Shown here: positions 25,395-25,905 of the stretch, piece after piece | Layout of the letters: the number at the start of each line of letters is the position of its first letter | Position numbering within the stretch: the stretch's first letter is position 1 | NCBI GenBank assembly: GCA_965230995.1 | Contig: OZ246398.1 | Location: forward strand, 309,204 to 373,203 | DNA from: an uncultured Candidatus Saccharibacteria bacterium | GTDB lineage: Bacteria > Patescibacteriota > Minisyncoccia > Phycocordibacterales > G965230995 | Length of the DNA stretch: 64,000 bases | Direction: 5' to 3' | The notes under the pieces: model-generated | The model's input: only the letters and a program-made list of their open reading frames with translations | What the model was told of the DNA's origin: nothing | The model's database searches: none | Translations under genes and position numbers: made by a program

Positions 25395-25502
25395 AATATT
25401 GACAAATAATTTTATTTATGTATAATATATATAGAAAATCCTTCTAACTGTCACGCATGTGACGGAGGGGTTTAACTGGCTATAACGAAGGAGGGTGTTT
25501 AT

Positions 25503-25820
25503 ATGCCGTTTTTAAGTCCGTTCACTCCACCTGCATGGGAATATGCAGAAGGTGTGGCCACTGATTCGTCAGTGTGCTCGAAGTGCAATCGTCACATCAT
25601 CGGAAGTATGAGCGACCACGACTTCGATGCTCATCGCCGTAGGTTTGCAGGAAGTTGCATACTTTGCTACTACTCCTGTAGTGAGGCAGTTTTCCGTAGA
25701 CACCTGGTAGAACGTCATCCGACAATCAAGACCTGGGAGCAATTCTGGACTGAATACGACAGAATCTCTCAAGATGATGGTGACCCAGACCATCATGAAG
25801 ATCTGCACGATCACGGGTGA
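25503..25820 (+). CDS. small Cys/His-rich protein with two C2H2-like zinc-finger-type spacings and an acidic His/Asp-rich tail, in GC-rich island E
   Basis: aaggaggg lies 7 nt before the ATG. An upstream palindrome gtcacgcatgtgac is present. Spacings are CSKC-x10-H-x4-H and CILC-x11-H-x4-H. The hairpin ccccaccggtgcgctcgagcgctggtgggg plus T-tract terminator lies at ~25835-25878. Confidence 0.4.
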   Translation: MPFLSPFTPPAWEYAEGVATDSSVCSKCNRHIIGSMSDHDFDAHRRRFAGSCILCYYSCSEAVFRRHLVERHPTIKTWEQFWTEYDRISQDDGDPDHHEDLHDHG

Positions 25821-25905
25821 GACCTGTTGTCACATGCCCCACCGGTGCGCTCGAGCGCTGGTGGGGTCGCTTTTTTTATATTCAAATCTCATATATGATA
25901 ACTAT

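Follow-up and report, generated by a model that had tools for sequence, protein, structure and literature searches.

Among proteins, the closest described counterparts of the gene treated here are two kinds of zinc finger that differ in the spacing of their metal ligands. Classical Cys2His2 zinc fingers (PF00096 and its clan) follow the pattern C-x2-4-C-x12-H-x3-5-H, and in the bacterial Ros/MucR proteins the spacer of 12 residues is one of nine. The C4 finger of DksA/TraR proteins (C-x2-C-x17-C-x2-C) lies at the C-terminus and is combined with a coiled coil that has a DxxDxA tip. The His-rich tails of HypB, SlyD and UreE bind Zn or Ni. We analysed 64,000 nucleotides from an uncultured Candidatus Saccharibacteria bacterium (assembly GCA_965230995.1, contig OZ246398.1, positions 309,204 to 373,203; hereafter the window), in which murD and murC are separated by an insert with a 105-codon open reading frame (ORF), here termed ORF-E. 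Its Cys-His spacers of 10 and 11 residues lie between the nine of Ros/MucR and the classical 12. We tentatively read the insert as a self-contained orphan gene restricted to its lineage, the product of which would be a small protein that binds zinc and probably nucleic acid.

The insert between murD and murC

The insert comprises 511 bp (25395-25905; coordinates are those of the window, and murD, murC and the features between them lie on the forward strand). Its left edge is the stop codon of murD (25392-25394), which is encoded by ORF 24072-25394 with the Pfam domains MurD-like_N, Mur_ligase_M and Mur_ligase_C. A sigma70-type promoter, TTGACA-16 nt-TATAAT, follows at 25399-25426 and matches the consensus at 12/12 positions, the only such match in the 40 kb scanned (window 1-40000). 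Transcription is predicted to start near 25433, ~7 nt past the -10 box. The 5' leader contains a stem-loop at 25436-25473 (AAAUCCUUCU..GUCAC GCAU GUGAC GGAGGGGUUU), which is present in the minimum-free-energy fold as well as in the centroid fold; the fold of the 88-nt leader has a z-score of -1.75. The Shine-Dalgarno (SD)-like element AAGGAGGG occupies 25488-25495, and its GGAGG core ends 8 nt before the ATG of ORF-E (25503-25820), which encodes 105 aa with a mass of 12.3 kDa and an isoelectric point (pI) of 5.5. An intrinsic terminator begins 16 nt past the ORF (25836-25877, stem-loop 25836-25867); with a 13-bp stem (9 G-C pairs), a 6-nt loop and a T7 run it is among the two strongest in 20001-40000. 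The original prediction had named the ORF, the SD-like element, a palindrome and the terminator, and all four are present where it had placed them.

The transcribed part of the insert has a GC content of ~0.50, compared with 0.37-0.40 in the flanking genes. The GC content at third codon positions (GC3) of ORF-E is 0.47, compared with 0.19-0.35 (median 0.26) in 38 native genes. Identical DNA extends over 9.2 kb in the independent Logan assembly SRR14271374, which excludes an error confined to one assembly as the source of the insert. Its neighbours are genes for a Na/Ca exchanger, pyruvate kinase, MurD, MurC and a DUF4015 protein. Taken together, the data support the presence between murD and murC of a cassette of foreign composition that has its own promoter, SD and terminator.

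Near its right-hand edge, the insert contains a leaderless-type -10 box, TATGAT (25894-25899), 6 nt before the murC ATG. It had been proposed that murC begins inside the insert, but that start (25774) is an artefact of the longest-ORF call. The tblastn alignments of relatives begin at residues 1-9 of the murC that starts at 25906, and the Logan gene call (436 aa) agrees; with its Pfam domains, the true murC extends from 25906 to 27216.

The palindrome GTCACGCATGTGAC (25450-25463) forms the tip of the 5'-leader stem-loop and is better read as the tip of an RNA hairpin than as an operator. By chance alone, a window would contain ~0.42 sites of this kind, and at least one occurs in 35% of shuffles. 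The copies of GTCACATG (25456, 25829 and 199) were likewise considered as an operator set and rejected: the three copies in the window compare with 0.95 expected, 7/100 shuffles reach three, and the repeats are compatible with chance by our own estimate of ~0.7 nine-mer repeat pairs expected in 430 bp. Riboswitch-like pairing of CCUUCU with the actual SD was also discarded, since the minimum-free-energy fold is more stable by 9.6 kcal/mol.

For comparison, GTDB species genomes and JGI metagenomes were searched and yielded 160 murD loci, all of them from Paceibacteria-type bacteria of the candidate phyla radiation (CPR), namely Kaiserbacteria, Adlerbacteria, Nomurabacteria and similar groups. 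The top murD identity was just 59%, in the species genomes and the metagenomes alike, which makes it impossible to date the insertion by a close-range comparison of empty and filled sites. In 141 loci, murC lay downstream of murD on the same strand. The two genes abutted or overlapped (gap ≤30 nt) in 88 of these (62%), which bears out the claim that the window carries an insertion at this point. The other 53/141 junctions held cargo, most commonly the glutamate racemase gene murI (~760 bp; ~25 loci). Further cargo included NUDIX hydrolases, D-amino-acid aminotransferase-like, beta-lactamase-like and DUF218-like genes and more, all names other than murI being assigned by eye. One junction (L126) appears to carry a truncated murI remnant. 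Sequences resembling ORF-E were absent from the related murD-murC loci, where the best tblastn alignment (E = 0.016) fell inside murC. Since 53 of the 141 junctions are occupied, we regard the murD-murC junction as a variable slot that holds a unique cassette in this bacterium.

Coding status and ligand pattern of ORF-E

Where an AT-rich genome contains a GC-rich island, this is often an RNA gene, and the insert might be a structured non-coding RNA in which the ORF is accidental. The GC-rich stretch begins exactly at the predicted start of transcription and ends at the terminator, and the whole transcript folds with a z-score of -3.35. However, this value arises from the 5' hairpin and the terminator, whereas the fold of the 318-nt ORF-E body is unremarkable (z = -1.55), and Rfam gave no match in the insert even at E ≤10. 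Moreover, an ATG-initiated ORF of at least 105 codons is found in just 0.44% of dinucleotide-preserving shuffles of 25433-25835, and the ligand pattern described below is also improbable by chance. Because the ORF body folds in an ordinary way, Rfam is empty and both ORF length and ligand pattern are non-random, we conclude that the region is a coding sequence and not a structured RNA, and we consider an RNA gene very improbable.

ORF-E contains two Cys-Cys-His-His (CCHH) modules, C25-x2-C28-x10-H39-x4-H44 (25575-25634) and C52-x2-C55-(C59)-x11-H67-x4-H72 (25656-25718), the second of which includes 'FRRHLVERHP'. The N-terminal region is only 24 residues long and proline-rich, and the protein ends in an acidic tail rich in His and Asp (QDDGDPDHHEDLHDHG; 25770-25817). 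These CSKC and CILC modules are spaced as the original prediction had described them. We searched for two non-overlapping copies of CxxC-x9-13-H-x3-5-H and found them in 0/200,000 residue shuffles of ORF-E; a single copy occurred in 1.4%. Among the 645 six-frame segments of the window the motif is confined to ORF-E, and the double motif was found in 0/14,571 six-frame segments (1.25 million residues) from the related loci. The tail is equally real, with D, E or H at 11 of the final 16 residues (hypergeometric p ~1e-4) and a charge of -7, compared with +3 for residues 24-73. We conclude that the Cys/His pattern is a designed-looking set of metal ligands and not an accident of composition.

Such a set might also belong to a metal buffer or metallochaperone, whose Cys/His pairs and D/H-rich tail would bind Zn or Ni without any role for nucleic acids. 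The D/E/H-enriched tail is consistent with this function, as is the overall composition, in which 9 of the 105 residues are His, 5 are Cys and 18 are Asp or Glu. However, no metal-transport, hydrogenase or urease genes lie nearby and no family matches were obtained, and the likeness to HypB, SlyD and UreE is one of composition only. We consider a metal buffer or chaperone distinctly unlikely.

ORF-E is an orphan. A word-indexed search of 5.8 billion protein clusters retrieved ORF-E alone, and an exhaustive phmmer search of 1.84 billion representatives returned only ORF-E itself and P0002 (E = 4e-4). The latter, a cohesin/dockerin protein in which a 39-aa repeat occurs ten times, was rejected as a relative. 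Its E-value is inflated by the summing of six repeats, and a profile of the ten repeats (cellulosomal HEWDAG...TC-x-CGET) scores ORF-E at 5.1 bits, which 11/5000 shuffles reach. Nothing at threshold was found for ORF-E in Pfam, PHROGs, NCBIfam, PADLOC (where no defence match was obtained) or PDB sequences, and IMG/VR viral contigs, INPHARED phages and PLSDB plasmids yielded no match. No link to phages or eukaryotes was found, because ORF-E has no homologues in the databases searched.

Translation signals and the other GC-rich cassettes

The window contains a single 16S rRNA, the 3' end of which reads ...GGAAGCUGGUCGUG-AUGUAAUUCAAGG (20010-20022), where the bacterial consensus is GAUCACCUCCUUU. 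The CCUCC anti-SD is absent from this tail and from the 200 nt downstream. The native genes (~43) have no SD core of at least 5 nt at a sensible distance, except for one AAGGA just 3 nt from a start. By a regular-expression count, an SD core precedes 1/39 long native ORFs compared with a background of 6%, and in the 160 related loci the values are 9.6% and 6.9%, respectively. A -10 box that ends 6-10 nt before the ATG, which in sequence terms is a signature of leaderless mRNA, was found at 12/44 native genes, murD and murC among them (background: 5.6%), and most of the remaining native genes overlap their upstream neighbour. In a genome with a 16S rRNA devoid of anti-SD, the element AAGGAGGG is anomalous. 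We found no paper on the loss of the anti-SD in Patescibacteria, nor one on the source run SRR14271374. The rRNA genes of the window are unlinked and in unusual order, with 23S and 5S (4472-8441) located ~10 kb upstream of 16S (18534-20022) and protein genes between them; the 23S gene carries a group I intron at 6489-6772.

SDs are nevertheless present on all four ORFs of GC-rich cassettes in the window (GGGAGG, GGAGG, AAGGAG and AAGGAGG), and the difference from the 1/39 native ORFs is significant at ~4e-5 (Fisher test, hand-calculated). One cassette (233-750; ~50% GC) has the SD GGGAGG and a 105-aa ORF (322-639), the product of which is hydrophobic at its N-terminus and matches no Pfam family. 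It is preceded by a further cassette of ~50% GC (at ~30-228, within 1-232) that contains no convincing ORF, ends in a hairpin and T6 and has no Rfam match. Another GC-rich cassette (15231-15924) lies between a sugar transferase gene and secD and has the SD GGAGG and a 206-aa ORF (15308-15928), again with no Pfam match. By eye, a homopolymeric stretch of some nine G (near 15681-15690) and a hairpin that resembles a terminator (near 15838-15862) fall inside this ORF, for which reason its stop may lie earlier or its frame may be shifted or phase-variable.

The cassette at 20236-20900, between the 16S trailer and a tRNA gene, has a promoter, the SD AAGGAG and a strong terminator, with a GC content of 0.55 and a GC3 of 0.66. 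Its ORF (20330-20827) encodes a 165-aa secreted protein with a signal peptide and no Pfam match, which looks lysozyme- or transglycosylase-like by eye. A single homologue, of 53% protein identity, was found on JGI contig Ga0172380_10412953 (sample 3300014205; L162, 1-1009; ~1 kb). The contig is collinear with 20125-21120 of the window, and the homologue keeps the SD and, between AT-rich flanks, a GC3 of 0.69. Because this orthologue from another metagenome retains locus, SD and high GC, the SD-led GC-rich cassettes are apparently inherited and maintained and do not represent fresh debris; the class to which the cassette at 20236-20900 belongs is presumably functional. The tRNA gene next to it (21062-21135) has a partial 5' copy upstream at 20957-20993, detected by alignment and shared by the JGI contig. 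A copy of its 3' end (GGTCGACTCTTGGCACGCGCACA), found by eye, lies ~200 bp downstream at ~21300-21333. These partial copies look like att-type integration scars adjoining the cassette.

The translation signals bear on a different explanation of the murD-murC insert, namely that it is a silent or poorly expressed foreign relic from an SD-using donor, the main effect of which would be exerted in cis, its promoter and terminator separating the two mur genes. With a 16S tail that reads AUGUAAUUCAAGG instead of GAUCACCUCCUUU, such a gene would be translated inefficiently, and the background level of SD cores in native ORFs and relatives, the foreign GC3 and codon usage and the singleton status of ORF-E in the databases searched all fit a relic. 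In contrast, ORF-E is intact and the fit from SD to terminator is precise. The retention of SD and high GC3 at 53% protein identity in the cassette at 20236-20900 argues for selection on such cassettes, and the host-style leaderless promoter that murC already possesses, whether acquired or retained, indicates that the insert is not brand new. We consider a relic unlikely, but rank it first among the alternatives, ahead of a metal buffer or chaperone, a degenerate homing endonuclease (see below) and a non-coding RNA, in this order.

Further observations concern other parts of the window. A 63-nt direct repeat (1785-1847 and 2023-2085; 92% identical) appears to duplicate the 3' end and terminator hairpin of ORF 1398-1811, an ORF that comes after an L10-leader match. 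At 28821-30998, a homologue of the TrwB/TraG (VirD4-like) coupling protein has a Lys/Glu-rich low-complexity C-terminal extension of ~300 residues, and the 445-aa ORF after it contains PF00932 (LTD) according to the Logan gene call.

Comparison with known families and insertions

If the insert is an active orphan gene, as we tentatively propose, its strong promoter would give rise to an mRNA that runs through the stable 5' stem-loop, the SD-like element and the 105-codon ORF and stops at the strong terminator, and the stem-loop would probably stabilise this mRNA. The product would be a cytoplasmic protein of 12 kDa in which a mildly basic core (residues 24-73) lies between an N-terminus rich in proline and a strongly acidic His/Asp tail. 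Its core may fold around two zinc ions, either in sequential CCHH sites or in a cross-braced C4 + H4 arrangement. The most probable role would be that of a small regulator that binds nucleic acid or protein, with a tail that could mask or modulate the basic core or bind extra metal. The cassette terminator would uncouple murC from murD transcription, leaving murC to its own leaderless-type promoter (TATGAT). This reading is favoured by expression signals that are complete and unusually strong and by the contrast between a basic core and an acidic tail. The anatomy of the insert, its status as an insertion, the non-random ORF and ligand pattern and the lack of homologues are established by the analysis, whereas translation of ORF-E in this host, zinc binding, fold and binding target are what we infer.

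Several observations weigh against this reading. ORF-E has no homologue in the databases searched, so that neither its function nor even its translation is backed by conservation. Its codon usage is unlike that of the host (mean log relative synonymous codon usage -0.146, compared with +0.08 to +0.21 in 21 native genes), and an SD-dependent mRNA with a 70-nt leader may be poorly translated where the anti-SD is missing and genes are leaderless or coupled. The protein as a whole is acidic (pI 5.5), which is atypical of DNA binders. Every Pfam family profile remained below threshold. Finally, two single-sequence AlphaFold2 runs gave all-helical models of low confidence; the predicted local distance difference test score was 58.7 when the full-length protein was modelled and 63.3 with residues 21-88. 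The beta-beta-alpha fold expected of a finger was thus not predicted, at a confidence that leaves the models of limited weight, and a Foldseek search of the PDB with the low-confidence AlphaFold model found nothing at E ≤0.001.

Among the zinc-finger profiles, the nearest was zf-C2H2_12, which matched module 2 alone with E = 0.017 (15.2 bits; cut-off: 27.3) and the whole of ORF-E with E = 0.35 (11 bits). Module 2 alone also matched zf-C2H2_ZNF462_11 (E = 0.05, 13.9 bits; cut-off: 27), and module 1 alone matched zf_UBZ only (E = 0.15). The sub-threshold C2H2 matches owe largely to the ligand residues. The original prediction saw a resemblance to classical C2H2 fingers; membership of this clan did not hold, as the spacers are x10 and x11 in place of x12 and no profile exceeded its gathering score. 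A C4 finger of the DksA/TraR type was also rejected, the two CxxC pairs of ORF-E being 23 residues apart, with no DxxDxA motif and no Pfam match. The ligand logic of ORF-E is zinc-finger-like, yet membership of a zinc-finger family could not be demonstrated for it. Candidate arrangements are two CCHH sites in sequence, a cross-braced set of C4 (C25, C28, C52 and C55) and H4, and a degenerate zinc-braced His-Me finger.

The last of these arrangements would make ORF-E the remnant of a free-standing homing endonuclease of the HNH or endonuclease VII type, and such an origin would account for the intergenic location of the insert, with a conserved gene on either side. In its pattern CxxC-x9-DH-x12-CxxC, ORF-E resembles the zinc-braced core of HNH/EndoVII proteins such as T4 endonuclease VII, and the DH dipeptide (residues 38-39) is present. 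However, the Asn of the motif and its terminal His/Asn are absent, R46 and Y56 being found at the positions where they would be expected, and no HNH or Endonuclease_7 match was obtained in Pfam, PHROGs or PDB, even at permissive E-values. Nor did we find related copies of the insert, meaningful terminal repeats or a target-site duplication that would mark it as a mobile element. We regard a homing-endonuclease remnant as improbable.

On its own, ORF-E is one more CPR orphan gene, and CPR genomes are full of these. It would gain in importance if the Cys2His2 sets were genuine fingers: it would then be a rare bacterial tandem CCHH protein unlinked to Ros/MucR or to eukaryotic fingers, with a bearing on the origins of the fold. 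The presence of an SD on every GC-rich cassette, combined with a 16S rRNA unable to pair with it, offers a handle on translation start and on the origin of accessory genes in reduced bacteria. We attach little credence to the bolder proposition that ORF-E is the founding member of a novel family or fold that binds zinc and belongs to a set of SD-led, long-leader, GC-rich cassettes maintained by a Paceibacteria lineage without anti-SD, in which the native genes are leaderless or coupled. If it were true, a second, non-canonical route of translation initiation would serve a special class of genes or, more radically, the cassette genes would be built for expression in another cell, for example the host of the symbiont.

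Among insertions, the cargo genes found between murD and murC in relatives share the insertion site with ORF-E. Their functions can be recognised, their GC content is like that of the host and their homologues are numerous, whereas ORF-E is unique, GC-shifted and SD-led and has its own promoter and terminator. In the latter respects it resembles the other SD-led orphan cassettes of the window (ORFs 322-639, 15308- and 20330-20827), with which it has in common an AT-rich promoter, a GC-rich transcribed part, an SD, a Pfam-less ORF and a hairpin terminator. These cassettes show no sequence similarity to ORF-E or to one another. The cassette at 20236-20900 differs further in that its product is secreted and has one orthologue, whereas ORF-E has none.

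Among proteins, the classical Cys2His2 fingers of eukaryotes and viruses share with ORF-E the two tandem C-x2-C ... H-x4-H sets, a hydrophobic residue three positions ahead of the first His (M36 and F64 in ORF-E) and the helix-like 'FRRHLVERH' of module 2. In contrast to these fingers, ORF-E has neither x12 spacers nor a TGEKP-type linker, and its low-confidence models show no beta-beta-alpha fold. Ros/MucR proteins (PDB 2JSP, against which our Ros query sequence was checked) likewise have a bacterial C-x2-C site with an H-x4-H pair. In Ros, the helix 'xKRHLxxxH' is followed by aromatic residues; the ORF-E counterpart is 'FRRHLVERHPTIKTWEQFW', and module 2 together with the aromatic helix after it ('KRHLTTHHSMTPEEYREKW') bears a superficial resemblance to Ros. 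Membership of the family (PF05443) was rejected, with a BLASTP E-value of 7.4, no ROS_MUCR match in Pfam and no phmmer match in the PDB at E ≤10. The architectures also differ: Ros/MucR proteins carry one C-x2-C-x9-H-x3-4-H site after an N-terminal oligomerisation domain, whereas ORF-E carries two sites, with spacers of x10 and x11, and no such domain.

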